This document shows positions 5,597 through 30,941 of a stretch of DNA of 32,000 nt, one piece after another. Positions within the stretch are counted from its first letter, which is position 1; every line of letters begins with the position of its first letter. The DNA is from Rhizomicrobium sp. (GTDB taxonomy: Bacteria; Pseudomonadota; Alphaproteobacteria; Micropepsales; Micropepsaceae), in the NCBI GenBank assembly GCA_036500585.1, contig DASYBT010000029.1, forward strand, positions 1 through 32,000, written 5' to 3'. The translations under genes and the position numbers were made by a program. The notes below the pieces were generated by a model. That model saw only the letters and a list, made by a program, of their open reading frames with translations, ran no database searches and was not told where the DNA came from.

Positions 5597-5941
5597 TCAC
5601 CGCGGCGGCAGGCGGGACTCCAGCACCGTGATGCGATGCTCGTGGTCGGTCTCGCTGCTCCATAGCCGCGTCTGGTCATCGCGCTCCTGCTGGATCGCCT
5701 GGGCGTTGCCGAGGATGCGTACGTCGTAGCTCGGGAGAGACTGCTCCACGTGCTGAAGTCTGCTATCGATCGAACGAAGCGTGGCGGTTTGCTCGTTGCC
5801 GATCCACCGCACCAGGGCAAGCAGGATCGTTGCCGCCGCGACCAACACCAGGCGATAGGTGATGGCACCCCCGCCGTTGGTCGCGAACGCGTAGGCGCGC
5901 TGCGAAAGGCTTCGCATGTTGTCGGAATTTGTTTCTGCCAT
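5597..5941 (-). CDS. Membrane-anchored coiled-coil protein (hypothetical)
   Basis: ATG 5941 lies inside tracked ORF 5597..6031 and gives MAETNSDNMRSLSQ.... There is one TM segment (YRLVLVAAATILLALVRWI) followed by a polar heptad-like tail. The gene lies downstream of the terminator at 5984-6021. Confidence 0.5.
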   Translation of the reverse strand: MAETNSDNMRSLSQRAYAFATNGGGAITYRLVLVAAATILLALVRWIGNEQTATLRSIDSRLQHVEQSLPSYDVRILGNAQAIQQERDDQTRLWSSETDHEHRITVLESRLPPR

Positions 5942-5983
5942 GGCACGCGCCCCATCGAAGTGTTCGCCGGAATACGCAACAGG

Positions 5984-6867: not shown

Positions 6868-6879
6868 GGGATTTCCTCT

Positions 6880-8616: not shown

Positions 8617-8629
8617 GGTCTCTGTCCTT

Positions 8630-13065: not shown

Positions 13066-13957
13066 AATAGCTCCCGCCGTCCATGTCCTGATTGGAGTTC
13101 GGATAGGACGTGATCGAATCGTTGCCCGGCATGTAGGGAAAGCCGCGGTAATTCTTCACGTTGGCGAACTTCGCCTTGCAGGTCGGAAACTGCTTGTCGC
13201 ATCCGGCCGTGATCTTGAACGTATCGGCGACCGCCACATCCCGGCTCATCGGCTGCCACAGCTCGATGGTCGTCACGCCGGCGACCACGGAATAGCGCTT
13301 CACTTCCATCGCCAGGCCAGCATTGGCGCCCGTCAGCCAGGTGAGCTTGCCGCCGCCGCACCATGTATCGACAAAGCTCAAACCGGTCGCGGTGAAGCGG
13401 CGGTTGTCGGTCAACGCCGCCACCGTGCCGTTGCCGAGAAACGCTGGATCGGTGAGATCGACTTCGCCATTTGGCGAGCAGCGGGAATCGCCGAGATCGG
13501 CATCACAGGCATAGCCGAAGGCGCGCCCTTGCGGCTGGTTGAGCGCTTGCGCCAGCCCGCGGATTTCCGCCTGAAACGCCGCCTTGCCGCGTTTGACTTC
13601 GCCGAGCGTGCCCTTGCGCATCAGTACGCGCTGCGAGGTGTCCGCCCAGTTGACGCGCCAGATCTCGATCTCGGCGCTGTCGTACAGCCCGGCTCCGAGA
13701 TCGTCCTCGTTGAGATCGCCGGACGATAGCGCGCCGGAGGCTTCGAGGTTGTCCACCTGCAGCCCGAGCGATCCCTGCATCTGCGACGCGGTGAAGCCGG
13801 TTGCCGCGGCATAGGTCACGCCATCGAAGGAAAGGTCGCGGTCGTGATCGGTGAAGCCCTGCACCACATCGTCATTGCGGGTGAGCTTCCAGCACCACGC
13901 GAGCGTGGTGACTGTCTGCGCGATGTGCGCGGCCAAACCGGAATCGAGAGTCTTCAT
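13055..13957 (-). CDS. Distal tail/hub protein, DUF2163 + BR0599-type (RcGTA g13-like)
   Basis: MKTLDSGLAAHIAQTVTTLAWCWKLTRNDDVVQGFTDHDRDLSFDGVTYAAATGF... is the canonical N-terminus of this family. The start forms an ATGA overlap with the stop of the upstream g12-like gene, and its own stop overlaps the downstream NlpC/P60 gene by 11 nt. Confidence 0.9.
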   Translation of the reverse strand: MKTLDSGLAAHIAQTVTTLAWCWKLTRNDDVVQGFTDHDRDLSFDGVTYAAATGFTASQMQGSLGLQVDNLEASGALSSGDLNEDDLGAGLYDSAEIEIWRVNWADTSQRVLMRKGTLGEVKRGKAAFQAEIRGLAQALNQPQGRAFGYACDADLGDSRCSPNGEVDLTDPAFLGNGTVAALTDNRRFTATGLSFVDTWCGGGKLTWLTGANAGLAMEVKRYSVVAGVTTIELWQPMSRDVAVADTFKITAGCDKQFPTCKAKFANVKNYRGFPYMPGNDSITSYPNSNQDMDGGSYYGN

Positions 13958-14547
13958 TCGTCGGTGACCTCGATGAGATCGATCTGCGTCACGATCTGGT
14001 TGTCGTAGGAGTTCGCCTGCACCGGCAGCTGGTCGATGTCGTAGCGCACGGGCACGTTGAACTGAAACGCGGCGGTCGGCGTGGCGGACGGCGCGGATGC
14101 AAAGGTGATGATGCCGGTGAGATAATCGATGGACGCCGGCGTGACGATGCTGCCGCTGACCTTCACCACCACCGTTCCGTTCACCGGCCTCAGGATCGTG
14201 CGGACGAAGGTGTTGGCGCCGACGGCGTAGTTCTTGACGATCTGAAATGTGGTGCTCGTCAGCTGGACGGTCGCATTGTCGCCGCCGGAATCGAAATCCG
14301 TCCAGTCCTTGAACGGGAACGAATGGCCGCGCCCGAAGACATTGCGGAAGTGCGCGATAACATCCGCCATCTGGGCGCGCGTGCGCACGCCGGTGGAGAT
14401 GTTGTATTTCGCCCGAGCCTGGCTCCAGCGGATGTTGCGCTGCTCGCCGCCGGAGCCGAGCGCCACAACATCCGTCAGGAAGCCGGGGCCGCCCGTTGCG
14501 CCGCGCGCCACCGCGTCCGGAAAGGGTGCATCGCTCAAATAGGCCAT
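13954..14547 (-). CDS. Distal tail protein, DUF2460 (RcGTA g12-like)
   Basis: The product starts MAYLSDAPFPDAVARGATGGPGFLTDVVALGSGGEQRNIRWSQARAKYNIS.... It follows the tape measure gene. Confidence 0.85.
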   Translation of the reverse strand: MAYLSDAPFPDAVARGATGGPGFLTDVVALGSGGEQRNIRWSQARAKYNISTGVRTRAQMADVIAHFRNVFGRGHSFPFKDWTDFDSGGDNATVQLTSTTFQIVKNYAVGANTFVRTILRPVNGTVVVKVSGSIVTPASIDYLTGIITFASAPSATPTAAFQFNVPVRYDIDQLPVQANSYDNQIVTQIDLIEVTDE

Positions 14548-14583: not shown

Positions 14584-17500
14584 TCAGTACCGCCGCGAGC
14601 CGTTGCGCACGGCGCCGGCGAGCTTCGCCATCGTCTGTCCGCTGGAAGCGTGGAAGGCTCCCGGGTTTGGCGTCTGGATCACGATCGCGCCGGGCATGAT
14701 GGTGACGCCGCCGGCGTGGCCCCGGTTGTAGGCCTTGGTCTCGGTGCGGTTGAGCACCCGCTCTCCCGTTTGCAGAATGGACGGCACTTCGTCGGGGCCG
14801 AGATACACCCCATCGTGAAACCGCGGCGCGAAGCGCAGCACGTTCGACGGCAGCGCGCGCTTGTCGCCGCTGCCGGGGCTCACCATGCTGCCGGCATGGA
14901 ACACACCGGCAATACTGACAGCCGCGTCGCTGTTGAGGCTGCTGCCGCCGAACAGGCTGGTGAACCAGCCGAGCAATCCGCCGCCGCCAGAGGACGAACC
15001 GCCGCTGAGATTGAAGCCGGAACTCAGCGGCGACATCACGACATAGATCGGATTGGTTGGCGTGCCGTCCGGCTTGCCGAGGCCGCCGGCGGCGCTGAAC
15101 ACGGATTCCAAGGTCGGCGTGTTGGTGCCGAAGATGTCGTTCTTTAGCGGGTCGATGGCCGCGAGCTTGACGAGTTCCGTTTCGATTTCCTTGCTGGCGG
15201 ACAAACCCAGCTGCTTCCAGTCGTTCCAGCTGAACTTGCCGTTGGTGAGGAAGTTGGACGCGTCGGTCGCCAGCGTGTCGAACATGCCTTCCAGTTCCTG
15301 ACGCGATTCCTGCGCCAGCTTGAGCTGTTGATTAAGCTGCGTCGACGCCGCGGCATTGGCGAGAATCTGGCGGCCTTCCTCGCTGTCGGCCGAGATGTTG
15401 TCCTTGATCAGCTGCTGCTTGGCCTGCAGCACGGCGATCTCGACTTCGCGCGCGCTGTCGTTGTCGTTGGCGATCGCCAGCTCCTTCTTGAGCAGGTCGA
15501 TGTTCTGGTTTCCCGTCTGCACCAGCGCCAGCGCCTTGGTGCGCGTCGCTTCCGCATTGTCGTTCGCCCGCGCCCTGGTGAGCGCGTCGAGGATTGCTCC
15601 CAGTTCCTGCTTCGCCTTGCCCTCGGCGATGTCGTAAGCGATGCGCAACGGCGCCAGCGCGTTCTCCGTCGCCATCGCCTGCGCCGACTGCTCGGAGGTT
15701 ATGCTGCCGGCAGCAACCTGATCGTTGAGCGCCTTGCGTGCCGCCGTTTCGTCGGCGAGCTGCGCCGCCTGCTTGGCGCCAGTGATGGCCGTGTGGCCGA
15801 GGCTTTCCTCGAGCTTCTTGCCGCTGTCCTCCGCCATGGCGCCGGCGGCCGAGCCTTTGAGGTACGCCGCGGCGACATCGATCCACGCATCGACGTTCTG
15901 CTTGACCGCCGTCGTCTGCTGCTTGACGGAGGCGGTGGCCTGTGCCCGCGCCTTGGCGCCGGCATCGTCGATCTCGCGCTGCGCTTCGGCCGTGGTGACG
16001 ACCTTGCCGGCAAGCTCGACCGATTTCTGCTGTTCGGCGATCGCCACCTTCTGCGCCACCGTCTTGGCGCTGATCGCTTGCGCCGCGAGCTGCTCCAGCT
16101 CATGCTGCTTCGTCGCCGGATCGATGTAGGTCTGGATGGCCCGCGTGTAGGCATCCTGCGCTTCTGTCACCTGCTGCGTCGTGACGCCAGACTTCGCCAT
16201 CGCCGCCTGGCTGGCGCCGAGCGCATCGACCTGGGCCTGGTTTGCCTTGAGCGACGCGAGCGCGGAATCGGACTGCGACTCTTCGCTGGCGCCGCGCACC
16301 AGCGGCCCGGCACGCAGCGACAGGGCCTGTGCCGCCGCATCGGACGCCGACTGTTTCGCCTTGGCATTGGTCGCGTCGATGGCTGCGTTGACGCGCGCCA
16401 GATCGGCTTCGATGTCGGCAATGGAGCGCGCCGGCGCGGTGGTGGCACTGCCGCCGAGTCGCTTTTCCGGATCGTAGGTTGGAAGGCCGATGCCCTGTTG
16501 CGCCAGCGCCAATTCCTGCTGCAGCTGCGCCTGCGTATCCTTCAGCGACGGCGGCTTGAACGGCTTGCTCATCGCCTCGACGACGCCGTTGTATTGATTC
16601 TTCACCCACTGCCAGGCGTTGCCGTACCAAGTGGTCTGGTCGGTCGCGTCCTTGAGCGCCTTGATGAGCGCGGTGGTGAGAACCGTCTGCGCGCCGGTTT
16701 CATCGCCGGCTTGCATCATTCGCTCGATCAGCTGCGCCGTGTTGTCGTCGAGACCGCCAAGCTGCTTGAGCAATGCTTCGCCGGCCGTCTGCGGCGCGGT
16801 GAAGGCCTTGATCATTTCGGCCTGCGCGTCGTCCATGCTGGTGCCGGTCTTGCGCGCGTAATCGACGGTGAGATCGATCAGGCCCTGGAGCTGCTGGCCG
16901 CCGATCTGTCCGGTCTTGGCGAAACCCGCCGCCATGTCGCGCGCCGTGCGCACCGAAATGTTGTCGGCCGCAGCAGCCGCTTCCGCGTATGCCTCGATCT
17001 GATCCTTGGTCGCACCGACACCGCGCGCGGACAGCTCGGTTGCCTGGGTGAGCTGGTTCTCGGCATCCTCGGCGCGGTTGTAGGCCAGCACGATGGCCGC
17101 CCCGCCTGCCACGATGGCGGCAATGGAATCGACGGCCGGATTGGTGACGATGGCACCGATGGCTGCCCCGATGCCTTCGCCCGACGACGCGCGCAGCAGA
17201 TCGCCGGCGGCCATTCCCAACTGGCGCAGCGACAGGCCGCCGGCGGTCGCGCCCTCGCCGAGATGCACGAAGACTTCCGTCAGCTCGCGCGCCTTGGTGG
17301 CGTTGAGTTCTTCGCCGGAGGAGAGGTCGACGATGCTCTTCCTGGCGTCGTCGTAAGCCTTGCGCGCGAGCGCAACCGCGGCCGCATGCTCCGTCTGGTT
17401 GATGGTGCCGCTCGCCAGCAGCATGTTGGCATCGGCGAGCGCATCGTTCATCTTGCCTTGCACTGTGCCGAGCGGGTCGATCTGCGCGCGCAACGCGGCG

Positions 17501-17817
17501 GCGCGCTGTTCCATGCCGGAGAATGCCGCCTGGAACGTCGAGGCCGCATCGCGCGCCGAGCCGGCCTGGTTGTCGTTGACGCCGAGCAGCTGGTTGAACG
17601 AGCTCTGGTTCGCCTGCGCCACCTGCGCGTTCTTCTGCGCCTCGGTGAGCTGATCGAAGGCGGCGTGCTGACGCTGGATGGCGGCCGTGCCCTGATCGAT
17701 GGCCTTGCCGACCTGCGCGAACGCAGCATCGCCGGATTGGGCGATATCGTCGAGATCGCGCTGGATGTCGGCCTTGCCGTCCATCGCGATGCGGACAGCC
17801 ATCTGTCGGATCGTCAT
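14584..17817 (-). CDS. Tail tape measure protein
   Basis: The product is 1077 aa, Ala/Gln-rich and alpha-helical in composition. It lies immediately downstream of the frameshifted chaperone pair and upstream of the distal tail genes. Confidence 0.9.
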   Translation of the reverse strand: MTIRQMAVRIAMDGKADIQRDLDDIAQSGDAAFAQVGKAIDQGTAAIQRQHAAFDQLTEAQKNAQVAQANQSSFNQLLGVNDNQAGSARDAASTFQAAFSGMEQRAAALRAQIDPLGTVQGKMNDALADANMLLASGTINQTEHAAAVALARKAYDDARKSIVDLSSGEELNATKARELTEVFVHLGEGATAGGLSLRQLGMAAGDLLRASSGEGIGAAIGAIVTNPAVDSIAAIVAGGAAIVLAYNRAEDAENQLTQATELSARGVGATKDQIEAYAEAAAAADNISVRTARDMAAGFAKTGQIGGQQLQGLIDLTVDYARKTGTSMDDAQAEMIKAFTAPQTAGEALLKQLGGLDDNTAQLIERMMQAGDETGAQTVLTTALIKALKDATDQTTWYGNAWQWVKNQYNGVVEAMSKPFKPPSLKDTQAQLQQELALAQQGIGLPTYDPEKRLGGSATTAPARSIADIEADLARVNAAIDATNAKAKQSASDAAAQALSLRAGPLVRGASEESQSDSALASLKANQAQVDALGASQAAMAKSGVTTQQVTEAQDAYTRAIQTYIDPATKQHELEQLAAQAISAKTVAQKVAIAEQQKSVELAGKVVTTAEAQREIDDAGAKARAQATASVKQQTTAVKQNVDAWIDVAAAYLKGSAAGAMAEDSGKKLEESLGHTAITGAKQAAQLADETAARKALNDQVAAGSITSEQSAQAMATENALAPLRIAYDIAEGKAKQELGAILDALTRARANDNAEATRTKALALVQTGNQNIDLLKKELAIANDNDSAREVEIAVLQAKQQLIKDNISADSEEGRQILANAAASTQLNQQLKLAQESRQELEGMFDTLATDASNFLTNGKFSWNDWKQLGLSASKEIETELVKLAAIDPLKNDIFGTNTPTLESVFSAAGGLGKPDGTPTNPIYVVMSPLSSGFNLSGGSSSGGGGLLGWFTSLFGGSSLNSDAAVSIAGVFHAGSMVSPGSGDKRALPSNVLRFAPRFHDGVYLGPDEVPSILQTGERVLNRTETKAYNRGHAGGVTIMPGAIVIQTPNPGAFHASSGQTMAKLAGAVRNGSRRY

Positions 17818-17823: not shown

Positions 17824-18210
17824 TCAGCTTTCGGAATTGGAGGCGTTGAAGGCGCGCACGGCGAAGGCTTCGATTTCGGGGAGGAGGTCACAGAGAAGCG
17901 GGCTTTCGGCATCCATGCTGCGCGCGAGCGACAGCACCGCGGTGAAGTCGAGCCCGGTGGCAATGCGGATGATCTGAACGGTGCCGTCCGGATGCGCCAG
18001 CGCGTCGATGGCGACGCGCAGCTGGCCGGTGCACCGCTTGATCAGCTCCCACGCCGCGATGCCGTCCGGCGTTTCGGGAGCGTTTATGCTGTAGGCGCAC
18101 TCTTTGCAGTGCGCTTCCTGCGGCTGGCGGAGGGTGCAGTATCGGCAGAACCCTTCGCCGGAATTTTCGCCCCCGTAGTGCCACTCTGCGAGGGCGCGAA
18201 TGCGTTTTTT
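17824..18210 (-). CDS. Tail assembly chaperone, -1 frameshift extension (gpT-like part of a G/GT pair)
   Basis: My hand translation of the -1 frame from the slippery site is open for 127 codons: KKRIRALAEWHYGGENSGEGFCRYCTLRQPQEAHCKECAYSINAPETPDGIAAWELIKRCTGQLRVAIDALAHPDGTVQIIRIATGLDFTAVLSLARSMDAESPLLCDLLPEIEAFAVRAFNASNSES*. Third codon positions are GC-rich. No start codon of its own gives 60 aa or more, which is why it is absent from the track. TGA 17824-17826 lies 6 nt before the TMP start. Confidence 0.7.
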   Translation of the reverse strand, partial: KKRIRALAEWHYGGENSGEGFCRYCTLRQPQEAHCKECAYSINAPETPDGIAAWELIKRCTGQLRVAIDALAHPDGTVQIIRIATGLDFTAVLSLARSMDAESPLLCDLLPEIEAFAVRAFNASNSES

Positions 18211-18551
18211 TCGTCGCCCCGCACCAGCGCCGGAATCACATAGCGCTTGTCGATGGCATCGTAGATGCGCCAGTTGGAGAGATAGGCCGCGATCGCTTCC
18301 GGCGTGACCGGCAGCGGGTTATCGGACGTGTCGCCGACGCCTTCCCACGCGACGATGCCCTGTTGCGCGCAGGAGCGGGTGAACGCCTCGCTGCTTGCCT
18401 CTTCGGCATGTTCGGGATCGGCCTTGGCGGCAAGCGCGCCGGCGTTGCGCGCGACCAGGATCGTCTTGGTCGTGATCGGACGGAATTGCGTGCGCTGTCC
18501 GGGCAGGACTTCGAGCCAGAACGGCTCGGCGTTCAGATCGAGATGGAGCAT
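18084..18551 (-). CDS. Tail assembly chaperone (gpG-like, zero-frame product)
   Basis: ATG 18551 (MLHLDLNAEPFWLEVLPGQRTQFRPITTKTILVARNAG...) lies inside tracked ORF 18084..18602. It sits between the tube and tape measure genes. The low-complexity zero-frame tail begins after the slippery site. Confidence 0.8.
   Translation of the reverse strand: MLHLDLNAEPFWLEVLPGQRTQFRPITTKTILVARNAGALAAKADPEHAEEASSEAFTRSCAQQGIVAWEGVGDTSDNPLPVTPEAIAAYLSNWRIYDAIDKRYVIPALVRGDEKNAFAPSQSGTTGAKIPAKGSADTAPSASRRKRTAKSAPTA
18204..18210 (-). promoter_or_regulatory. -1 programmed ribosomal frameshift slippery heptamer A_AAA_AAC
   Basis: The minus strand reads GAC GAA AAA AAC GCA. The heptamer is in the X_XXY_YYZ phase of the chaperone frame, which I checked against the ORF coordinates. 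On the plus strand it appears as a run of 7 T at 18205-18211. Confidence 0.7.
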
Positions 18552-18637
18552 GGGTTTTTCTCTCAGAGCGAAAAACAAAAGGGCGTGCCGGTTTCCCAGC
18601 ACGCCGTGGCGATGGATTCAGGCCTCTTTGCAGCGAA

Positions 18638-18883
18638 CTATTTGCCGTCCGGCCGTTTGCTCAATCCCTTTTCTGCCAACACGTCGGCCACGTCATCGAT
18701 GTGCAGGCAGTCCACCATGCAGGCGTAGTCGTTGGGCGGCTGAATGGTCGCGATGTTGCCGTTGCAGTAGTCGTTTCCCGGCGTGGCGCTGTGCAGCACG
18801 CCGAAAGCTACGACCTTTCCACTCTCGCCCAGCTTCACGATCTTATCGCCGTTCTTTGCTTCTCTGCCGTTTCTGTAGTGCAT
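18638..18883 (-). CDS. Small phage hypothetical protein (81 aa)
   Basis: ATG 18883 is preceded by AAGGAGAA. The composition is balanced (MHYRNGREAKNGDKIVKLGESGKVVAFGVLHSATPGNDYCNG...). Confidence 0.6.
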   Translation of the reverse strand: MHYRNGREAKNGDKIVKLGESGKVVAFGVLHSATPGNDYCNGNIATIQPPNDYACMVDCLHIDDVADVLAEKGLSKRPDGK

Positions 18884-18943
18884 CGTCGTTCTCCTTCGGC
18901 TGGTTTCTAAAGTGAGAGGTTTTTCGCTACCGCTTGAGTGCGG

Positions 18944-20233
18944 TTAGTAGCTCGACACGTCGTTGCACAGGACGACCGTGCACGCCCGGCCGACCGTCGG
19001 GTCTTTGGCGCCCTGCCAGTCGAAGGTCGCCTGCACCGCGCCAGGGCCGGTGATCGGCACTTTCGGCTTGGGCAGGAAGACGCGGTGGAAGATGAACTCC
19101 AGCGTCTGGTTGGCGGCGATCTGCCAGCTGTAGGTGAGATCGACCGGCTCGCCGGCGGTTGCCAGCGCCATCAGTGCGGTGTCCTTGAAGCGGATCACCA
19201 CCTGCCCGGTGTACGACGCCTCCGCCGGATCGACACCGGCAATGCGGCCATCGGGGCGGATCACTTCGACCTTGTCGAGATTGTTGGCGGCGGTGAAATT
19301 GCCCGACACCACATCGCCCAGGGTCGCGCCAAGGCGCGTGACGCTGCCGGTGAACTGGGCGAAGCGCAGCAACTGCAGCACGGTCGGCGAGCCGGCGGCG
19401 GACGACCCGGTGCGCGCGCTCTCGCCCTGGTTGATCGTGCTGACGGTCGCGTTGAGCAGGCCGGAGCGCGCCAGATTGATGGCGATCTTGTCGATGCCGA
19501 TGCCGTAGTTCATCGCGTAGGAGGCGATGTCGACATTGCCGATCTCGCCCGACAGCGACGGCAAGGTGAGCGCACCGGACGCGAAGGTGTGCTGATAGCC
19601 GCCGCTCGCCGCGCCGCCGGACATGGTGGCGCCGGAGACCGTGGCGTGCGACGCGGGCGACGTGGACGCCGCCAGGGTGAAAGCATTGCCGCCGGTGCCG
19701 ACCGTGTCGTAGGTGGCGAAGATCGTCGTGCCCTTGAGGTCCATGCTGTAGGTCGCGACATTCACATCCGTATCGGTGCTGGCGTTGAGCGCCTGCACGG
19801 CATTGACGACGGTGTCGTAGAGCGTCGCGCCGATGAGGATGTCGCCATCGCCCGGATCGGACGCCACGAAGGTGAAATCGACGCCGTTGGGCGAGATGGT
19901 GGCGCTGGTCGCGGGCTGCGCGGAGAACACCCAGCTGGCGGTCGCCGCAACGCCTTCCACCGTGGTGGGCGCGCCGAGCAATCCCTTGAGCCACAGGCCG
20001 AAATTGCGAAGGTCGACGGGGACGACGATGTCGCCGGCGTTGTTGATCACATCCTGCGCCGGATCGGCGGGATCGCGGCCCTGGCCGAGCAGATCGCTGG
20101 CGATCAGATCCTGTTCGTCACCGATGTTCGCCGAGACGAACGGCACCTTGTAGAAGCCGGAGCCCGGCGGCGTGCCGTAAGTGGATTCATACGCCACGCA
20201 CAGCTGTGCGTTGGCGCCGCGTGCGCGAGCCAT
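18944..20233 (-). CDS. Major tail (tube) protein, large form
   Basis: ATG 20233 is preceded by GAGGAGAA. The gene lies upstream of the chaperone pair. The N-terminus (AYESTYGTPPGSGFYKVPFVSANIGDEQDLIASDLLGQGRD...GDIVVPVDLRNFGLWLKGLLG) resembles tail-tube proteins of alphaproteobacterial phages. Confidence 0.7.
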   Translation of the reverse strand: MARARGANAQLCVAYESTYGTPPGSGFYKVPFVSANIGDEQDLIASDLLGQGRDPADPAQDVINNAGDIVVPVDLRNFGLWLKGLLGAPTTVEGVAATASWVFSAQPATSATISPNGVDFTFVASDPGDGDILIGATLYDTVVNAVQALNASTDTDVNVATYSMDLKGTTIFATYDTVGTGGNAFTLAASTSPASHATVSGATMSGGAASGGYQHTFASGALTLPSLSGEIGNVDIASYAMNYGIGIDKIAINLARSGLLNATVSTINQGESARTGSSAAGSPTVLQLLRFAQFTGSVTRLGATLGDVVSGNFTAANNLDKVEVIRPDGRIAGVDPAEASYTGQVVIRFKDTALMALATAGEPVDLTYSWQIAANQTLEFIFHRVFLPKPKVPITGPGAVQATFDWQGAKDPTVGRACTVVLCNDVSSY

Positions 20234-20296
20234 GATGTTTCTCCTCGTGTTGTCGGATTGAGGGCGCGAGCGCGCCCGGAAGATTTTCGTTATTTT

Positions 20297-20321
20297 GCGA
20301 ACACGCTCGCGCGCGCTTCGC
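20297..20321 (-). repeat. REP-like hairpin repeat, copy 4
   Basis: GCGAACACGCTCGCGCGCGCTTCGC on the plus strand. It lies in the 89-nt gap between gene 20323..20997 and the tube gene. It is preceded by the GGGCGC-GAGC-GCGCCC hairpin (20261-20276). Confidence 0.8.
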
Positions 20322-20322
20322 T

Positions 20323-20997
20323 CTAACCGAGAGCTTCGAACTTGCTCTCCAGAATGTCGGGCACCTGCGCGGCCCAGTGCTCGGCCGCCTGATCGACGCT
20401 CAACCGCTTCGGCATCCGCGCCGTCGGCGTGAGCGTAAACATCGGCACCTGCACATGGTGCGGCGGCGCCTTGCCCTGACGGTACAGGCGGCCGAGCTGC
20501 TTGCCGGTGGCGCGCTTGAACGATCCCGCCGCGGTGCCGACGACATCGACATAGGCGACGAGCCGGCCATTGCCGGCGCGGGCGAATTTCAGGTCCTGGT
20601 TGAAATAGGTTTCAACTTGCGCCGGCGTCATGCGGCCCCCGCCGCCGCGCGCTCCCGCCGTGCGCGGGACGTTCGGCCACGGAATGGCGAGATAGCGCCG
20701 GCCGTTGACCGTGTGAATCACCGGACCGCGATCGAACGCGTCGATGATCGCCGGCGCCTTCGACCACACATACGCGGCGGCATTGATGCTCGCCGCCGTG
20801 GACGGATAGCGCCGCCCCTGCCAGGTGTTCGCCACGCGGGCGCCGAGGCCGGCCGCTTCGACTTGGGCGCGCAGCTCGAGCTTGAGGCCTTGCGTGATCT
20901 CATCGGCGGCGGCGGCGGCCGCCTTCGCCATGTCGTCGCCGAGGCCATCGGTGACCGGCTTCCATTTCGGCGCCGTGAAGCGAAAGCCGCGCGTCAT
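20323..20997 (-). CDS. Phage structural-region hypothetical protein (224 aa)
   Basis: ATG 20997 (MTRGFRFTAPKWKPVTDGLGDDMAKAAAAAADEITQGLKLELRAQ...) lies inside tracked ORF 20323..21267. It forms an ATGA overlap with the upstream gene. Confidence 0.65.
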   Translation of the reverse strand: MTRGFRFTAPKWKPVTDGLGDDMAKAAAAAADEITQGLKLELRAQVEAAGLGARVANTWQGRRYPSTAASINAAAYVWSKAPAIIDAFDRGPVIHTVNGRRYLAIPWPNVPRTAGARGGGGRMTPAQVETYFNQDLKFARAGNGRLVAYVDVVGTAAGSFKRATGKQLGRLYRQGKAPPHHVQVPMFTLTPTARMPKRLSVDQAAEHWAAQVPDILESKFEALG

Positions 20998-21374
20998 GCC
21001 GTAACGGTGAGACTGCGATCGTCGCTGTTCGCGATCATCTGGCGGAAGGACGGTCCCAGGATCACGCAGCCATGGCTGGCATCGTTCGCCTGGTTGTTGC
21101 CATGGATGAAGAACGCCGAGCGGCCGAAGGTGTTGGTGCCCGGCAACGGCGTCAGCGCCATGACGCAGGGCCCGAGCTTGGGATGGCTGTAGCTGGCTGG
21201 CCCGATGCGATAGCTGCCTTGCGGGATCGGGCCGACATTGGCGACGTTCTGCATCGCCGGATTGCATCGACCCCTGCCGGTTCCGCTGTAGCCGACGCCG
21301 ACCAGCTGTCCGTCATGGATCAACTGGCCGGTCTCTTGCGAAAAGGTCCACATCGCTTTCCCGTCCCGTAACAT
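20994..21374 (-). CDS. Tlde1/DUF2778-like L,D-transpeptidase-fold (YkuD-like) peptidoglycan enzyme
   Basis: The product contains MWTFSQETGQLIHDGQLVGVGYSGTGRGRCNPAMQNVANVGPIPQGSYRIG...GRSAFFIHGNNQANDASHGCVILG, with a His...SHGC catalytic-type signature. The start is ATG 21374, or more likely ATG 21353, which follows GGGAAAG. Confidence 0.7.
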   Translation of the reverse strand: MLRDGKAMWTFSQETGQLIHDGQLVGVGYSGTGRGRCNPAMQNVANVGPIPQGSYRIGPASYSHPKLGPCVMALTPLPGTNTFGRSAFFIHGNNQANDASHGCVILGPSFRQMIANSDDRSLTVTA

Positions 21375-21386
21375 GGCTCGCGCAAT

Positions 21387-21821
21387 CTACCCTGCAGCGC
21401 TGGCCGTCGTATAGGACAGCTGCACGTGCAGAACGGCAGAGCGCTCGGTCTCGACGCCATCCGCCTCGTATTCGTTGATGTCGGGCGCCGTCATCACGCG
21501 CGCATCGTCCACCGCGCCGCCGAGAGTACGGTCCACCGCAAGCGCCGGATCGATGCGCCCGATGATGCTTTCGACCGTTGTGGCGCGATCCGGTCCGCTT
21601 GCGGTGATCTCGAATTCCACCTGGTGCTCGAAGGCAAACGACAGCGGCGACAGGATGACTTCCGGGTCGCCGGGATCGCCGTGCCGCATGATCACCACGC
21701 CGTCGTGGCTCGCCGGCACGTTCTTTTCCGGATCGCGTTCGAAGGTGACCGGTGATGCGAGCGCGGCTGCCATGACGGATTCCAGCGCATCGAGCGCCCC
21801 CGCCCTCGTTTGGAAGGTCAT
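21387..21821 (-). CDS. Neck/tail-completion region protein (144 aa, function by position only)
   Basis: ATG 21821 (MTFQTRAGALDALESVMAAALASPVTFERDPEKNV...) forms an ATGA overlap with the upstream gene. Confidence 0.6.
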   Translation of the reverse strand: MTFQTRAGALDALESVMAAALASPVTFERDPEKNVPASHDGVVIMRHGDPGDPEVILSPLSFAFEHQVEFEITASGPDRATTVESIIGRIDPALAVDRTLGGAVDDARVMTAPDINEYEADGVETERSAVLHVQLSYTTASAAG

Positions 21822-22141
21822 GCCGATGCCGCCTCGATGCGCCACAGCAGGCGATCGGTATCTCTCGACAGCGCCTGCATGACGCGAAAATTCTGTCCCG
21901 AACCTCTGGGAATCTCGATCACATCGTCCTTCGATGCGGCTACCAATTCGCTCTTGCGGATTTCGAGCACACGCTTGTGATCGGTGAGCTTCGCCTGGCC
22001 TCCGATCACAACGTCGGTGTCGGGCTCCGCCAGCAGCGCGCGCACGGCGACGGCCTGTCCGCCCTGCGGCGTATAGAGCACGTCGATCGCCATCGCGGTG
22101 GCAAACAGCGAATCCAGCCCGATGGAAAAGGGGTCACTCAT
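21818..22141 (-). CDS. Head-tail joining region protein (107 aa, function by position only)
   Basis: The product starts MSDPFSIGLDSLFATAMAIDVLYTPQGGQAVAVRALLAEPDTDVVIGG.... Both ends form ATGA overlaps. Confidence 0.6.
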   Translation of the reverse strand: MSDPFSIGLDSLFATAMAIDVLYTPQGGQAVAVRALLAEPDTDVVIGGQAKLTDHKRVLEIRKSELVAASKDDVIEIPRGSGQNFRVMQALSRDTDRLLWRIEAASA

Positions 22142-22422
22142 TTCACGACAACGTCAAAGCCGCGGGTGAGCGATGTGCCGTCTGCGAACGCAACCGTCGC
22201 CTCCACGATGCTGCGCAGGCCGCAGGTGCCACCCGACAGCGTGACCTTCTGCGTGAGCGCGCTCACCCCAGCGTCCGCGGCGCCCACGTCGCCGCATTTC
22301 ACGGCGACGGAATGCGTGGCAATGCTGCTTTGCCCGGACGGCGCAAACGCCGACCAGTCGAGCGCAACCGTCTCGATATCGGCCGGCGCTTTCACCAGAT
22401 CCGGGAAGGCGAGAATGGTCAC
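22138..22422 (-). CDS. Head-tail region hypothetical protein (94 aa)
   Basis: The start is GTG 22422, 3 nt after the upstream TAG. The product starts MTILAFPDLVKAPADIETVALDWSAFAPSGQSSIATHSVAVKCG.... Confidence 0.55.
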   Translation of the reverse strand: MTILAFPDLVKAPADIETVALDWSAFAPSGQSSIATHSVAVKCGDVGAADAGVSALTQKVTLSGGTCGLRSIVEATVAFADGTSLTRGFDVVVK

Positions 22423-22425
22423 GGG

Positions 22426-22662
22426 CTAACGACGACCACCGTTCCCGGCGGCCGCTTCTTTTTCCGCCGCTTCCTTTTCGGCTGCAGCTTTCGCGGCCGC
22501 TTCCTTTTCCGCGGCCGATGGCCCGAGCAGCTTACCGTTCTTGTCGCAGTAGTCGGCAACGCCGAGCTTCACGAGGCGGTCTGCGAACTCATGATCCGCG
22601 AACCCGGCATGCTCACCGGCATTGTAGGGCGAATTGTGCTTCTTGAACTTGACGTGTTTCAT
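22426..22662 (-). CDS. Small hypothetical protein with EKEAA-repeat tail (78 aa)
   Basis: ATG 22662 is preceded by GGAGGG. The product starts MKHVKFKKHNSPYNAGEHAGFADHEFADRLVKLGVADYCDKNGKLL and ends in an AEKEAAAKAAAEKEAAEKEAAA tail. Confidence 0.55.
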   Translation of the reverse strand: MKHVKFKKHNSPYNAGEHAGFADHEFADRLVKLGVADYCDKNGKLLGPSAAEKEAAAKAAAEKEAAEKEAAAGNGGRR

Positions 22663-22693
22663 GGGGCGTGTGCCCTCCACAGAGTGATGGAAA

Positions 22694-22718
22694 ACGAAGC
22701 AGGCGCGAGCCTGTTCGC
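22694..22718 (+). repeat. REP-like repeat, degenerate copy 5 (opposite orientation to the other prophage copies)
   Basis: ACGAAGCAGGCGCGAGCCTGTTCGC compared with the consensus GCGAAGCGCGCGAGAGCGTGTTCGC. It lies in intergenic gap 22663-22782. Confidence 0.5.
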
Positions 22719-22782
22719 AAAAAGGAGAGAAGCGGGCGCCCGCAACATCAGTCGCGCGTCCCGCCTGGCCGGAGTCGTTCGA

Positions 22783-23196
22783 TTACGCCGGCAGCTCCTG
22801 CGCGCCGCCGAGAACGATCGCGGCGGAGTGCAGCAGGGTGGGGGATGTGCCGCCGGTGAAGGCGACCGTGCTCACCGCGCGAATCCAGCGCTTGGCGCCG
22901 AGCAGATCGACGCTGGCCGACGCATTGCTATTCACCGCCGTGATCTGGCTGATCGCCGCGCCGTCGATATCGGCGGCGTTGGTGCCGGAATTGTCGTCCG
23001 CCGACTGAAGCTTGCAATCGAGCGTCTGCGTGCTGGGCGAGCCGGATGCCGCGCCGGTCTGCGCGAACAGCAGGCAGCTCTGATAGCCGAGGCGGTCAGT
23101 CCAGCCGCCATTAACAGTGCCGGCCGAAGAGGCCTGCGGTGCGACACCGGGCTTGCCTTTGATGAAGGCCCCGATGTTGTTGGAAAGCGGGTCCAT
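22783..23196 (-). CDS. Head-associated hypothetical protein (137 aa; possible decoration/accessory protein, by position)
   Basis: ATG 23196 is preceded by GGAGACGAAG. It is the first gene after the capsid gene. The product starts MDPLSNNIGAFIKGKPGVAPQASSAGTVNGGWTDRLGYQSCLLFAQ.... Confidence 0.55.
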   Translation of the reverse strand: MDPLSNNIGAFIKGKPGVAPQASSAGTVNGGWTDRLGYQSCLLFAQTGAASGSPSTQTLDCKLQSADDNSGTNAADIDGAAISQITAVNSNASASVDLLGAKRWIRAVSTVAFTGGTSPTLLHSAAIVLGGAQELPA

Positions 23197-23294
23197 TGTC
23201 TTCGTCTCCGATTTGAGGTGCGAGTGCGCCCCCGCGCTTTCACGCGGGACGCGCAATTCACAGGTTCTTGGGATTTGCTTTGGCGAGAATCGGC

Positions 23295-25595
23295 TTACGA
23301 CCAGGTCACGCCCGTCAGCACAGCGGTCGAGGGATCGTGGCGCATGTTGAAGTCATGCTCCTCGATGACGCGGATCACCGTTTGGTCGTTCGAGAACGCC
23401 GACACCACCGTATTGCTATCGGTGTTGTATGCCGCCTCGTTCGACACATCGATGCGCAGACCAGGAACCTCGGCGATAACAGCATCGGCGAAGTCGGTAA
23501 GGTAGATTTCAGAATCCGATCCAGAGCCGAGGTTGATCGGAATGTTATTGGTGACCGCATAGGCAAAGCCATTCAGCTTGCCCTGGTTCATCTCGTCCCG
23601 ATAGATGTATTGGTTGTTCGCATTCTGCAGATTGTAGAGGTAGTTGCGCGAGCGCCACGCGAACATCCAGCCGGGACGTAGCATCCGGCAATTCGAATTG
23701 GTGAGCGCGTTCTGCAGCTTCTTCAGGTCGTCGTTGGTATTGGTAGCGCTGACGGTGCCATTAGCGGCGATGACGTTGGAGCTGGGTGCTGCATTGCGCA
23801 TGCCGCGTGGTGTGTACTCGGTGCCAGAACCGCGAATGAACGCCACGTCTTCGGCTTGGGCAATCGCCGTCACCATGTCGTCCCGGACGACCTGATCGGC
23901 CTGCGGGCTCGCGAACGCGAGCAGATCGTTGGAAATCGGCACCAGCGCCGCAAGTTTCTTGGCGCTGAACTTCACCTGCGCCGTTCCGAGATCCTGTCCG
24001 ACGATTGGCTTGTTTTCGCCGACATAACCAGCGTTTGCCCCGGAAGCGAGACGCGGCATAGAGGTGTTGCCGCCCGGCATGGGGAGAATGATCGGATTCA
24101 GCTTGCGCACAGCAGAAGCCGGACGCAGGAACTCGATCACCTCGGCCGCATACTGCTCTGGCACGAGGAAGCCGCCGGACGCGCCGACCCCGGCCGCCAT
24201 GGCGCGGGTGAGCAGCGGATCGCCCCACATCCGGCCCGAGATGTCGAGCGGCGAAAATCCGCTGCGCTTGGCGAACGCCAGGCAGCGCAGCATGCGCGCG
24301 GCCATCTCGCCTTTTTCCGGATCGCGCTTGATGCCGCCGCGGATCACATTTGGATTGCTGGCGAACGGATTGCTGGCGTCCGTCTGCGGCGATGCGCGGT
24401 CGAGCTTGGCCGCTTCGTCGATCGCCAGGGTACGGAACGCATCGAGCGGCGTTTCCTTGCGGACGTGCTCGGCAGCGAGTTCATCCGCAAGACCGAGCTT
24501 CTTGGCGATATCGGCGATGCCGTCGCGGCGTTCCTGTTCGGCCTTGATGCCGAACTGCACGCCCGCCTGAATGGCGGAGCGCGTGTTGGCATCGAGTTCG
24601 GCGGCAACAGCGCCCGCCGGCGCGGTAGTCTCTTTCATGGTGGTGGTTTCCCTTTCGGAAATGGCGGGCGGAGTCCCGCGGGTTGAACCGTGCGGTTGCG
24701 CGGACCGGAATCCGGCAACCACATCGGCAGGCATCGGGCACCCGGAGACCTCGTAAGGCTCCCAATCGGTGACCGTGTGAACGGATGGCGTCTGCGTGTC
24801 GTCGATCTCGACCTTGTGCGTGGCGTAGCCGACGGAAAGCCCCGTCAGGATGCCGTCGCAGGCGTCCTGGAATGCTGCGTCGCCGCCAGGATTGCGCGAG
24901 AAGCGGACGGTGCCTGCGAGCTGGCGATTTTCGATGCGGGCGCTGCCTGGCACCACGGCGCCGATCATCGCGCGCAAACCGCTGTAGTAATCATGGCTGT
25001 CGAGCATCGCCGCGCCCTTGTTCATGCGGTCGAGACGGACGGATTTCGGATCGTGCTTCAGCACCTCGACGTAATCGCCGTCGCTCCAGCTCGAGCGCTG
25101 GACAGGCGTTTCCGTCGAGAAGATGCAATCGATGGTTCGCTCGGCATGATTGATCGTGCCGGGCACGAGCTGCACCGAGGCCGCGCGGTAGCAGAGGCGC
25201 GGCGCCACGATGTCGCGCGTCTCCAGGCCTTCCTGCGATGTCTTCTTTCCGTCTTCGCTTTTCTGGTTCATCTCGTCCATGAGGCGGCCGGCGGCGTCAT
25301 AGACGTCCGTGTCGTTCTGTTGTGCCGATCGCGAACGGATGGCTCGCAGCGCGGAGCGATAGACCTTGCCGTTCTTGCCGAACGGGTACTTGAAGCGCTC
25401 CTTGGTCCGCTCGGTGGCATCAGTGTCTTCGCCGAGAAACCACTTCGTGTAGGCGTCCCAATTGTCGCCGCCTTCGCCGAGCAGCGCGTCTTCGTCGGAC
25501 GCGTCGAAGCTCCACGGATCGGAATCGTTGTCGTCGCCATTGGCGATCAGCTGCGAGGCGTGGCGCTCGCCCGCCTTGTTCAGAACAAGCGTCAT
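23295..25595 (-). CDS. Fusion: N-terminal acidic domain + HK97-type prohead serine protease + HK97-fold major capsid protein
   Basis: The protease part contains ...MLDSHDYYSGLRAMIGAV...GILTGLSVGYATHKVEIDD (the HD and SVGY motifs). The capsid part contains ...FLRPASAVRKLNPIILPMPGGNTSMPRLASGANAGYVGENKPI...KLAALVPISNDLL...EDVAFIRGSGT.... The product is 766 aa. The start forms an ATGA overlap with the portal gene. Confidence 0.85.
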   Translation of the reverse strand: MTLVLNKAGERHASQLIANGDDNDSDPWSFDASDEDALLGEGGDNWDAYTKWFLGEDTDATERTKERFKYPFGKNGKVYRSALRAIRSRSAQQNDTDVYDAAGRLMDEMNQKSEDGKKTSQEGLETRDIVAPRLCYRAASVQLVPGTINHAERTIDCIFSTETPVQRSSWSDGDYVEVLKHDPKSVRLDRMNKGAAMLDSHDYYSGLRAMIGAVVPGSARIENRQLAGTVRFSRNPGGDAAFQDACDGILTGLSVGYATHKVEIDDTQTPSVHTVTDWEPYEVSGCPMPADVVAGFRSAQPHGSTRGTPPAISERETTTMKETTAPAGAVAAELDANTRSAIQAGVQFGIKAEQERRDGIADIAKKLGLADELAAEHVRKETPLDAFRTLAIDEAAKLDRASPQTDASNPFASNPNVIRGGIKRDPEKGEMAARMLRCLAFAKRSGFSPLDISGRMWGDPLLTRAMAAGVGASGGFLVPEQYAAEVIEFLRPASAVRKLNPIILPMPGGNTSMPRLASGANAGYVGENKPIVGQDLGTAQVKFSAKKLAALVPISNDLLAFASPQADQVVRDDMVTAIAQAEDVAFIRGSGTEYTPRGMRNAAPSSNVIAANGTVSATNTNDDLKKLQNALTNSNCRMLRPGWMFAWRSRNYLYNLQNANNQYIYRDEMNQGKLNGFAYAVTNNIPINLGSGSDSEIYLTDFADAVIAEVPGLRIDVSNEAAYNTDSNTVVSAFSNDQTVIRVIEEHDFNMRHDPSTAVLTGVTWS

Positions 25596-27199
25596 TTCGG
25601 ATTTTCTCCTTCAGAGGACTGGCTGGCGTCTTCCTCGCCGGCCGGCGTTTCGGTAGCGCCGTCGCCGGCGCCTTCAGGACGCAGCCCCGGCGACGTGGCG
25701 GCGCCGGGCTTGCTCACCAGCGCGGCGTCGGCATCGGACACGACGCCGCCCTTCACGAGCGCGTTGTGCCAATCGATGGCTTCGGCCAGCACGCGCTCCG
25801 GATCGCCGCCGCGACGCCGGATGCGCTCCTGCGGCGATGTCAGCAGTGCGCGGATCGATGCCACGTCGTCCTGCGTATCTTTCAGCCGGTCCACCGACTC
25901 GAACATCGGCACGGTGTGATCGACCGTGTACGGAACGCCGCGCGGAAGCTCGCCGGCGACCACGCACGCATCGATGAAGGCGCGATAAACGGGCGTCGCC
26001 CACATCGGGATGAAGGTGAGCCATTGCATGGTTTCGCAAGAGCGGCGGAACTCGTTGGCGCCGGCCTTGAGCGATGAGAAATTTCCCTGCGACAGATCGC
26101 CGGTGATCTGCTCGTACATCACGTCCCAGGCCGCGGCGAGGTCACGCGCATTGACCGCGCGCACGGCGGAATAGGTGTTGTCCGTTGCGATGGGGGTGAA
26201 CTCGACCTTCTTGCCGCCGCGCGCGATGGCAATCATCCCGGGCTCGAACGCCTCGATGCGGTTGCCTGCGGCGTCCTCGACCACGGGCCCGTTCGGACCG
26301 ATATCCGGCGACGGCTTGCCATCGGCGGTCTGCGTCGATCCGGCAATACCGGCTTCGTCTTCATCGTCCGCGCCCAACACCACGGCGACCTGACAGGCCT
26401 GGAGGCGTTTGCGCATCAGCTCGGACATCCAATAGTCCTGTCCGTGCCTGGCATCGATCATGCCGGGCGTAAGCCACGGCACGCCGCGCACCTGGCCGAT
26501 GCGCTCGACCTCGTAAAGATGCAGCACCGACTTCGCGTCGATGCGATCGGTCTCGTACGACTGCAGCGATCCCGGAATGAATTCGCCGGGATGCTCGCGG
26601 AACAGCCAATAGCCGGCGCGCTTGCCATCCTGCAGCTCGACGCCCTGCACGATGCGGCCGTTGTCCAGCCGCTCGTTCTTGCGGTGATCGAGGAAGTCGC
26701 CTTCCAGCAACTGCAGCTCTAGCGGAATCTTGCGCGCGCGGCCGCGGCTTACGATGCGCAACCGCGTGAGCTCTTCGCCGCCCTCGATCATCGAGCGATA
26801 GGCGAGCGCCTGCAGCCCGTAGATGTCGAGTTGGCCGGCGTAGTCGCACTCGTCGGCGAAGCGCTGCCACAGATCGGCGATCTTCTTGTTGAGAAGCTGG
26901 TCGCCGGTCTGCGGCTGCGGAATGATGCCGGTCCCGATGACGTTGTTCTTGAGCACGCGCACCGCTTTGCGCGCCATGCCGTGACCGCGCACGAGATCGC
27001 GCGAGCGATTGCGCAGGGTGACCAGGTCGCCATAGATCTCGGCGTTGGCGGAGGTCGAGGCAGCCAGCCAGCCATAGGTGGCGCGCGAATGGCGCGCAGC
27101 TTCGTAGCGGCGCAGCTGCAGGAGCTGGCGTGCGGCTTCGCGCTTCAGCGCGGCGCGCGGGCTGATGGCCTCGATGGCCCTTTCGAGAAGCGAGGCCAT
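25592..27199 (-). CDS. Portal protein, lambda (gpB) family
   Basis: ATG 27199 (MASLLERAIEAISPRAALKREAARQLLQLRRYEAARHSRATYGWLAASTSANAEI...) lies inside tracked ORF 25592..27487. It forms a TGATG overlap with gpW. It sits between the gpW and protease genes. Confidence 0.9.
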   Translation of the reverse strand: MASLLERAIEAISPRAALKREAARQLLQLRRYEAARHSRATYGWLAASTSANAEIYGDLVTLRNRSRDLVRGHGMARKAVRVLKNNVIGTGIIPQPQTGDQLLNKKIADLWQRFADECDYAGQLDIYGLQALAYRSMIEGGEELTRLRIVSRGRARKIPLELQLLEGDFLDHRKNERLDNGRIVQGVELQDGKRAGYWLFREHPGEFIPGSLQSYETDRIDAKSVLHLYEVERIGQVRGVPWLTPGMIDARHGQDYWMSELMRKRLQACQVAVVLGADDEDEAGIAGSTQTADGKPSPDIGPNGPVVEDAAGNRIEAFEPGMIAIARGGKKVEFTPIATDNTYSAVRAVNARDLAAAWDVMYEQITGDLSQGNFSSLKAGANEFRRSCETMQWLTFIPMWATPVYRAFIDACVVAGELPRGVPYTVDHTVPMFESVDRLKDTQDDVASIRALLTSPQERIRRRGGDPERVLAEAIDWHNALVKGGVVSDADAALVSKPGAATSPGLRPEGAGDGATETPAGEEDASQSSEGENPK

Positions 27200-27408
27200 C
27201 AGCGGCGAAGGAACACGGTCGGGTGATAGAGCGGCCGCTTGCGGCCGGTGACGGACTGGTTCTGCACCTCCTTGATCATGCGGTCGCGCAGGGCGAGCAT
27301 TTCCGGAATCGAGCCATAAGTGACGCGCTTGTCGCCGTAGTCGACCTGCGTGACGCCGGACGCGATCGCGTTGGTGAGCGCGTCGATCTGCGCTTGCGTG
27401 AAGGTCAT
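27199..27408 (-). CDS. Head-tail joining protein gpW-like
   Basis: The product is MTFTQAQIDALTNAIASGVTQVDYGDKRVTYGSIPEMLALRDRMIKEV.... The start is ATG 27408, with GTG 27417 as an alternative. The gene order terL ... gpW - portal matches lambda. Confidence 0.8.
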   Translation of the reverse strand: MTFTQAQIDALTNAIASGVTQVDYGDKRVTYGSIPEMLALRDRMIKEVQNQSVTGRKRPLYHPTVFLRR

Positions 27409-27413
27409 ATGAT

Positions 27414-27539
27414 TCACTTCTTTCTGCGACCTGGTCGCGTGATCGTGTCGAGCGCTGCCAAAATGGCGAACGCGATCCCGAACACACCGATGAGCACGCC
27501 GGCGATCAGGGCCAGCCCGAGAAGGATCGCCGTCAGCAT
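27414..27539 (-). CDS. Very small membrane protein (41 aa)
   Basis: ATG 27539 is preceded by AAAGGAA. The product is MLTAILLGLALIAGVLIGVFGIAFAILAALDTITRPGRRKK. The longer tracked ORF (27414..27659) is an extension through a REP copy. Confidence 0.5.
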   Translation of the reverse strand: MLTAILLGLALIAGVLIGVFGIAFAILAALDTITRPGRRKK

Positions 27540-30718: not shown

Positions 30719-30941
30719 CACTTTCAAAAGTCTCCACTGCAAAGCCAAAACGCGCAGCTTGCCCGTATTGCGCCGACGCCCAGGAAGGACCCAAGCCGGG
30801 CGTGTCGCGCGGGCAATCCGGCAAATTTGCCGCTTCGCGCGTCGCCTCAGCGCGACCCCAAAAAGCGAAGCGACCGGTCACCTGTTCGGGCCGGGCGCAT
30901 TTCACCATCCGGGTCATCAGTCAATGATTCGCAGCGATCCG
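30719..30941 (-). other. 223-bp non-coding region upstream of terS: candidate cos/terminase-recognition or late-promoter region
   Basis: It contains a perfect 14-bp palindrome CGGCAAATTTGCCG (30819-30832). There are also nested inverted repeats: CGCTTCGC (30831-30838) / GCGAAGCG (30865-30872), with inner GTCGC/GCGAC. GpA-type terminases are normally cos enzymes whose site lies just upstream of the small-subunit gene. Confidence 0.3.

Follow-up and report, generated by a model that had tools for sequence, protein, structure and literature searches.

Tlde1 proteins (formerly Tae5; DUF2778, PF10908) are known as effectors of the type VI secretion systems (T6SSs) of Salmonella and other proteobacteria. 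They are small, single-domain proteins without a signal peptide, and are expected to act in the periplasm on the bond between meso-diaminopimelic acid (mDAP) and D-Ala in peptidoglycan stem peptides. The catalytic motif of Tlde1a is His...(S/T)HGC, and this enzyme is both an L,D-carboxypeptidase and a D-amino-acid exchange enzyme, with a capping-subdomain insert that is found in Tlde1a only (PMC9638812). Tlde1 is toxic when it is in the periplasm but does no harm in the cytoplasm (bioRxiv 10.1101/2020.02.18.954545). Tlde1 genes in phages are not new, as GenBank records already carry the DUF2778/Tlde1 annotation and PHROG 24118 brings such genes together. In PhaLP, YkuD forms a rare class with 10 entries, one of them with PF10908 (PMC8310338), and YkuD/PF10908 has also been catalogued as a rare phage lytic-protein domain class (PMC5017753). 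Here, a gene of this family is described in a 32-kb stretch of DNA from Rhizomicrobium sp. (positions 1 to 32,000 of contig DASYBT010000029.1, hereafter the window), where it lies in a siphovirus late operon on the minus strand. The interpretation favored, with about even confidence, is that its product is a late-expressed Cys/His L,D-peptidase that accumulates in the cytoplasm, reaches the wall via a holin and helps lyse the cell.

Several described systems resemble this locus in part. Like the Tlde1 effectors, the window protein belongs to the same Pfam family, has the same predicted fold and the His...(S/T)HGC motif, and is small, single-domain and devoid of a signal peptide, with the same expected target. 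However, its gene belongs to the late operon of a phage, neither T6SS genes nor an adjacent immunity gene are present, and delivery from inside through a holin would replace injection from outside. Other phage Tlde1/DUF2778 proteins (PHROG 24118, Y3_191, JC1 gp41 and gpB of the Citromicrobium microvirus P1) are 37-44% identical to it and are also stand-alone proteins of ~120-136 amino acids, but their genome positions differ, the window gene being located between the genes for a tail terminator and a DUF6441 protein. Holin-dependent endolysins (lambda R, T4 e, M15 and amidase types) likewise form a soluble, late, wall-cleaving class without an export signal, and close homologs of the window gene fill the enzyme slot between holin and Rz/Rz1 genes; the window gene itself lies apart from any holin or spanin gene. 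Virion-associated hydrolases, such as the g14-type NlpC/P60 peptidase of the Rhodobacter capsulatus gene transfer agent (GTA) and the lytic domains of tape-measure proteins, share the structural-block location and the class of stem-peptide enzymes. These are domains or subunits of conserved structural proteins, whereas the window protein is a free enzyme of 13 kDa whose gene related phages lack.

The peptidase gene and its product

The gene, its internal features and its two neighbors are as follows.

20994..21353, minus strand: Tlde1-type L,D-peptidase gene, 119 amino acids from the probable Met8 start, a single catalytic domain (Pfam, PHROG, AlphaFold2, Foldseek)
21354..21374, minus strand: seven extra codons of the longest open reading frame (MLRDGKA), delimited by homolog starts and the junction sequence
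21066..21104, minus strand: catalytic motif His84-x8-Ser93-His94-Gly95-Cys96, codons read directly, followed by Val97
20994..20997, minus strand: ATGA stop/start overlap of the peptidase TGA with the DUF6441 ATG, coupling the peptidase to the downstream DUF6441 gene
21387..21845, minus strand: tail-terminator-like gene, upstream neighbor of the peptidase (PHROG 4204 'tail terminator', E=1.5e-15)
20323..20997, minus strand: DUF6441 gene, downstream neighbor of the peptidase (PF20039, E=3e-20; PHROG 6367)

Family membership is supported by two Pfam models that exceed their curated cut-offs on the peptidase, PF10908 (Tlde1_dom; 41.8 bits against 30.1) and PF03734 (YkuD; 28.9 bits against 23.4), and this match is far beyond chance. 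PHROG 24118, whose function is unannotated, also matches (E=1.5e-30). An NCBIfam scan gave no match, a PDB sequence search with the single protein found nothing, and a PDB search with a profile returned a marginal YkuD match alone, so that a fold search was needed. An AlphaFold2 model built on a 52-sequence alignment reached a pLDDT (predicted local distance difference test) of 94.8 and a pTM (predicted TM-score) of 0.88. When compared with the PDB using Foldseek, this model had the Tlde1a structures 7UMA/7UO3 as its top matches (E=1.3e-4, TM-score by query 0.66), and LdtMt2 and further L,D-transpeptidases ranked next. The TM-score normalized by Tlde1a was 0.48, for proteins of 119 and 172 amino acids; the window protein is probably too short for the capping-subdomain insert. 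The peptidase thus has the L,D-transpeptidase fold in its model and belongs to the Tlde1 branch of the YkuD superfamily.

The catalytic motif is complete. The reading frame contains FFIHGNNQANDASHGCVILG, with the His84 codon at 21102-21104 and the Cys codon at 21066-21068 (residue numbers follow the 119-amino-acid form; His91...Cys103 in the 126-amino-acid frame corresponds to His84...Cys96). H84, S93, G95 and C96, plus R78 and R104, are invariant in the 52-sequence homolog alignment, and the hydrophobic Val97 after Cys96 fits the rule of (S/T)-H-G-C followed by a hydrophobic residue. Two conserved disulfides mark the Tlde1a subfamily; the remaining cysteines of the window protein, Cys30 and Cys63, vary across homologs. 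Catalytic activity and bond specificity are predicted. No signal peptide, hydrophobic N-terminus or transmembrane segment was found in the peptidase sequence.

The longest reading frame at 20994..21374 (minus strand) has 126 codons and starts 12 nucleotides after the upstream gene. The true start is likely not this first ATG but Met8 at 21353, which would give a protein of 119 amino acids beginning 33 nucleotides past the upstream stop, because four observations agree: the homologs all begin with MW(T)Y/F, the source gene call (P0001) has 119 amino acids, the PHROG 24118 alignment begins at residue 8, and a GGGA is located 5 nucleotides before the second ATG. The segment 21354..21374 is then probably an untranslated leader holding this GGGA as a Shine-Dalgarno-like element for the Met8 start. 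The frame looks coding, since its third-position GC content (0.81) is like that of the flanking genes (0.76-0.89).

Much of this was anticipated by a first-pass annotation of the same DNA, made from the sequence alone. Its assignment to Tlde1/YkuD is borne out by hidden Markov models (PF10908 and PF03734 above cut-offs) and by fold (7UMA as the top match), as is the compact single-domain DUF2778/Tlde1 format; the His...SHGC signature that it read is present in the codons, and the ATGA coupling to the next gene, which ties the peptidase translationally into the late operon, is there as described. Its 126-amino-acid protein with a 12-nucleotide gap holds for the longest reading frame, but probably not for the real start, for which 119 amino acids and 33 nucleotides are likely.

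A scan of 18500-23500, limited to the sigma-70 consensus, gave 0 promoter-like sites, and no terminator-like site flanks the peptidase gene. The gene is therefore taken to be co-expressed with the late genes and not to form an autonomous moron, and its late timing would follow from its co-orientation and coupling with them.

Homologs and their genomic contexts

A collection search yielded 97 homologs of 109-189 amino acids, all stand-alone and with PF10908, and none with a docking domain or fused to a structural protein. At least 190 viral contigs in IMG/VR encode a relative of the PHROG 24118 class, and GenBank phages with a homolog include 56 Erwinia/Dickeya jumbo phages, one Yersinia phage and a 4.4-kb Citromicrobium microvirus. 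The closest cellular Tlde1 homologs are in metagenome-assembled genomes (MAGs) of Acetobacteraceae and Acidobacteria, and the closest cultured phages infect Rhodobacter. Neighbor-joining of 133 sequences placed the window protein together with 12 others, all of them viral, in a clade of 13, and no immunity genes were found in this clade.

For at least 10 of these 12 nearest relatives, the gene follows tail-fiber or large tail genes with small membrane proteins alongside, and for some of them PHROG matches confirm a holin or an Rz/Rz1 spanin as neighbor. In one of them (L004), the gene is preceded by that of a 66-amino-acid protein with several transmembrane segments and followed by an Rz-like spanin (phrog_1152, 1.5e-13) that overlaps an Rz1-like lipoprotein gene. 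Loci L001 and L005 have an Rz-like reading frame that encodes a transmembrane segment at its N-terminus and in which a lipoprotein frame is embedded. In L121 and others, a phrog_3427-type holin adjoins the Tlde1 gene, and two loci have an Rz-like spanin (phrog_1275, 5.5e-21) at position -1.

Positional statistics over 86 viral loci, with the Tlde1 gene forced into the gene calls, point the same way. Small transmembrane proteins were encoded at 96 of 413 positions from -2 to +3, compared with 51 of 479 distal ones (p=5e-7), and small proteins combining an N-terminal transmembrane segment with a coiled coil at 15 of 169 positions at -1/-2, compared with 0 of 217 further upstream (p=3e-6). The share of neighbors on the same strand was 0.87 upstream, 0.65 immediately downstream and 0.52-0.53 at some farther positions; this drop downstream fits a place near the end of the late operon.

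A microvirus offers a further comparison. In Citromicrobium phage vB_Cib_ssDNA_P1, the Tlde1 homolog gpB (L033, 1328-1738; 43.5% identity) is encoded between the capsid and replication genes, and a sister amoyvirus has a horizontally acquired M15 peptidase in the capsid/replication slot (PMC9865509), which suggests that one lysis enzyme was replaced there by an unrelated one. Another 80 loci, related to the window via the tail fiber, lacked Tlde1 homologs as well as counterparts of the small genes after the fiber gene, and are uninformative on the lysis region.

Effector copies and phage copies

Cellular copies of the gene have partners that viral copies mostly lack. The homolog P0041 (loci L002/L003), which is 58% identical to the window protein, is encoded inside a complete T6SS cluster and is followed by an overlapping gene for a 159-amino-acid protein with a signal peptide; other cellular homologs form chromosomal bicistrons. 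Two immunity-like families recur as downstream partners, one with a signal peptide and the other with a transmembrane segment (e.g. L002 8357-8836; L115 7473-8069). Members of these families lie directly downstream in 24 of 46 cellular loci from GTDB (L200-L245, mostly Acidobacteria and Acetobacteraceae MAGs) and in 2 of 79 viral loci from IMG/VR (Fisher p=5e-11). Effector and phage copies can thus be told apart simply by their downstream partner genes. Neither family has a homolog in the window; a novel, unrelated immunity protein is possible, yet both flanking genes are conserved structural genes.

A lineage-specific insertion

The junction that holds the peptidase gene was compared among IMG/VR loci encoding DUF6441 relatives. 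In five loci within L017-L022, which represent at least 3 distinct phages, the tail terminator, the DUF6441 protein and the tube protein are 52-69% identical to those of the window, and the distance from the terminator stop to the DUF6441 start is -1 to +3 nucleotides in all five. The two genes abut, so there is no room for a peptidase gene. It is also missing from the more distant relatives L024-L030 and from 11 cultured Rhodobacter capsulatus phages with the same module (e.g. RcDormio), the closest cultured phages, whose tube protein is ~46% identical to that of the window. The sole further occurrence of the window's arrangement is a 2-kb contig of another assembly (L006), which is 100% identical. 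The peptidase gene is a lineage-specific insertion of ~0.38 kb and, being absent in syntenic relatives, is not needed to build the particle.

The gene order around the junction also varies. The order is DUF6441, terminator, tube in the Rhodobacter phages (RcDormio, L246, 9332-10398) and in L024-L030, and that of terminator and DUF6441 in the window (20323-21845) and its close relatives is swapped with respect to it. The window DUF6441 protein is 34-35% identical to its homologs in Rhodobacter phages (34.4% to RcDormio gp12), where it is labelled 'minor tail protein'.

A possible role in lysis and its alternatives

The proposed sequence of events begins with the acquisition of the peptidase gene from the phage lysis-gene pool and its insertion between the tail-terminator and DUF6441 genes. 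The gene would be transcribed and translated with the late structural genes, and, for want of an export signal, the peptidase would build up in the cytoplasm. To meet peptidoglycan it would need a holin, with its gene at another place, to open the inner membrane; Cys96 would then attack the mDAP(L-center)-D-Ala bond of tetrapeptide stems. Stems would be trimmed, or cross-links that depend on the mDAP-D-Ala bond would be cut, and the wall would be weakened from within, the peptidase serving as an endolysin or an accessory lysis enzyme. The restriction of Tlde1 toxicity to the periplasm matches such a holin-gated enzyme without a signal peptide. Both the holin dependence and the role in lysis are proposed for this phage.

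In RcDormio, the holin (gp25) and endolysin (gp27) genes come directly after the fiber genes. The window has no homolog of gp25 or gp27, and no recognizable endolysin family was found among the major open reading frames scanned across its 32 kb. After the window fiber gene, four small reading frames of 62, 77, ~80 and 115 amino acids are found (5597-6867, minus strand), none with a family match, followed by convergent LuxI/LuxR genes. One of the four stands out.

5597..5943, minus strand: speculative membrane partner, 115 amino acids, with transmembrane residues 26-44 and a coiled-coil tail, at the end of the late operon

It occupies the place where related phages have holin and endolysin, and its architecture is shared with proteins encoded upstream of viral Tlde1 genes, which makes it a speculative candidate for the membrane partner. 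The protein has no PHROG or Pfam match, and no lipoprotein reading frame overlaps its gene.

Several observations weigh against a role in lysis. The window gene is flanked by structural genes and not by a holin or spanin gene, so the linkage seen in its nearest relatives is missing here, and ~29 kb of the source contig lie outside the window and may hold a canonical endolysin. The carboxypeptidase activity of Tlde1a, the one characterized member of the family, would not suffice to cut the wall mesh; some YkuD enzymes are known to be L,D-endopeptidases (PMC12729407), but this is not known for the Tlde1 family, and no paper testing an endolysin of this family was found. Beyond the window, the association of Tlde1 genes with lysis is strong for the nearest clade and partial for the family as a whole. 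Most immediate neighbors of viral Tlde1 genes have no annotated function, and a strict spanin-pair signature was detected in ~8 of 91 viral loci; as this detector missed cases visible by eye (e.g. L016), positional enrichment and PHROG checks were relied on instead. In Burkholderia phage JC1, the DUF2778 gene (gp41) stands before the terminase gene, and in the jumbo phages the homologs are among unknown genes. A second, unrelated phage (L013; IMGVR_UViG_3300037258_000151, 5348-8054) also carries Tlde1 in its neck module, in the order head-tail adaptor (phrog_442), Tlde1, Neck1/tail completion, tail terminator and putative tube. Finally, a GH108-type endolysin is encoded near the Tlde1 gene in at least one viral locus and an SLT transglycosylase in four, which suggests an accessory rather than a sole-endolysin role at those loci.

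The location of the gene invites a different explanation, in which the enzyme is packaged in the neck, tail or head of the virion and released at infection to remodel L,D bonds for tail penetration. The neck/tail block surrounds the gene, whose translation is coupled to that of a structural gene, the homolog of L013 is found between head-tail adaptor and Neck1/terminator genes, and distant YkuD-like/DUF5675 folds occur in large virion proteins (the tail lysozyme protein of Synechococcus phage S-H38, a tape-measure protein and a protein of Ralstonia phage RP31). The first-pass annotation leaned to this view, regarding the gene as an integral part of the morphogenesis operon and a virion-borne enzyme for wall penetration as a plausible role of its product. 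However, the survey of related tail modules that it proposed finds the gene not conserved at this position; the absence from five syntenic loci and 11 Rhodobacter phages speaks against an integral place in the operon. A virion-borne function is further disfavored by the catalytic domain standing alone in 97 of 97 homologs, with no domain for docking, by nearest relatives that are in lysis cassettes, and by JC1 gp41, which went undetected by mass spectrometry in the sole virion proteome found for a phage with a DUF2778 gene. Moreover, a g14-type peptidase is already present at the tail tip; its gene at 12622-13065, which the first-pass annotation had recognized, encodes a protein 49% identical to RcDormio gp20. 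An entry enzyme within the virion is thus considered unlikely. A variant would make the protein a free effector, similar to Hcp cargo, loaded in the lumen of the neck or tail and released into the periplasm before the DNA, as T6SS tubes do with Tlde1-type effectors. On this view, it would be co-assembly, not a chance insertion, that places the gene between connector and tube genes in two unrelated phages, the window and L013. Such a cargo is regarded as quite unlikely.

Two further explanations were weighed. As a toxin-type moron, the gene would supply the lysogen with an antibacterial effector for export, for example via a host T6SS, that kills competitors. This is in line with the 58% identity to P0041 inside its T6SS cluster and with the variable presence of the gene among related phages, as is typical of morons, but the gene is embedded in a late operon with no promoter or terminator of its own, and the clade closest to it is entirely viral. 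No T6SS, Hcp, VgrG or PAAR genes are nearby, every neighbor being a phage structural gene. The remark in the first-pass annotation that no immunity gene is visible stands, as neither immunity-like family is represented in the window, compared with 24 of 46 cellular homologs, and a secreting lysogen would intoxicate its siblings. A moron of this type appears very unlikely. The gene could also be a passenger without current function for the phage, brought in by recent illegitimate recombination, as its lineage-specific insertion and its odd location compared with the lysis-cassette place of its relatives may suggest. On the other side, the frame is intact with all catalytic residues kept, its third-position GC content of 0.81 fits that of its neighbors, its ATGA overlap couples it precisely to an essential downstream gene, and the identical arrangement is found in a second assembly (L006); a mere passenger is likewise considered very unlikely. 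Altogether, a lysis enzyme carried in the late operon is the reading favored here, with about even confidence.

Organization of the surrounding late operon

The remaining annotated genes of the late operon are listed below, in the order of transcription.

30125-30748, minus strand: small terminase
27961-30147, minus strand: large terminase
25592-27487, minus strand: portal
23295-25595, minus strand: protease-capsid fusion
22138-22422, minus strand: Gp77-like protein, 94 amino acids (Pfam Gp77, 36.4 bits, above cut-off)
21818-22141, minus strand: FII-like head-tail attachment protein
18944-20233, minus strand: tail tube
18084-18602, minus strand: chaperone
14584-17817, minus strand: tape measure
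8630-14547, minus strand: GTA-like g12, g13, g14 and g15
12622-13065, minus strand: g14-type peptidase (RcDormio gp20 is labelled 'peptidase')
6880-8673, minus strand: fiber

The product of 23295-25595 is a 766-amino-acid fusion of prohead protease and major capsid protein with an extra N-terminal segment of ~120 amino acids, and this segment alone matches a head-maturation-protease PHROG (phrog_34096). The Gp77 match at 22138-22422 (a fiber-tail adaptor, GP4, of podophages) is located in the head-tail joining region of an otherwise siphovirus-like phage. At the other end of the window, a LuxR-type regulator (2411-3136, plus strand; Autoind_bind and GerE) is followed at 3218-4861 (plus strand) by an autoinducer synthase (LuxI) fused to a phytanoyl-CoA dioxygenase (PhyH) domain, and the orientation of this pair is convergent to that of the phage late operon, whose end it faces. 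The matches of the LuxI-PhyH protein are too distant and taxonomically mixed to assign a host; they neither support nor contradict the Rhizobiales host on which the first-pass annotation built its argument from L,D (3-3) cross-links. No plasmid record covers >=80% of it. Megablast searches of the module against a phage collection and of 1-12000 against a plasmid collection gave no match, and there is thus no near-identical record in those collections.

Implications

If the role in lysis is true, Tlde1-type L,D-peptidases would be both T6SS weapons and a widespread class of phage lysis enzymes. The same enzyme family would serve as a T6SS effector accompanied by an immunity gene and as a lysis-module enzyme of phages without one, two uses that are told apart by a genomic marker. 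Cys/His L,D-specific chemistry would then join the activities of endolysins, which matters for bacteria with walls that rely on L,D bonds, and the small (~13 kDa) phage Tlde1 proteins would be candidates for enzybiotics. For annotation, the lesson is that a wall enzyme encoded in a neck/tail operon should not be presumed to be a virion protein.

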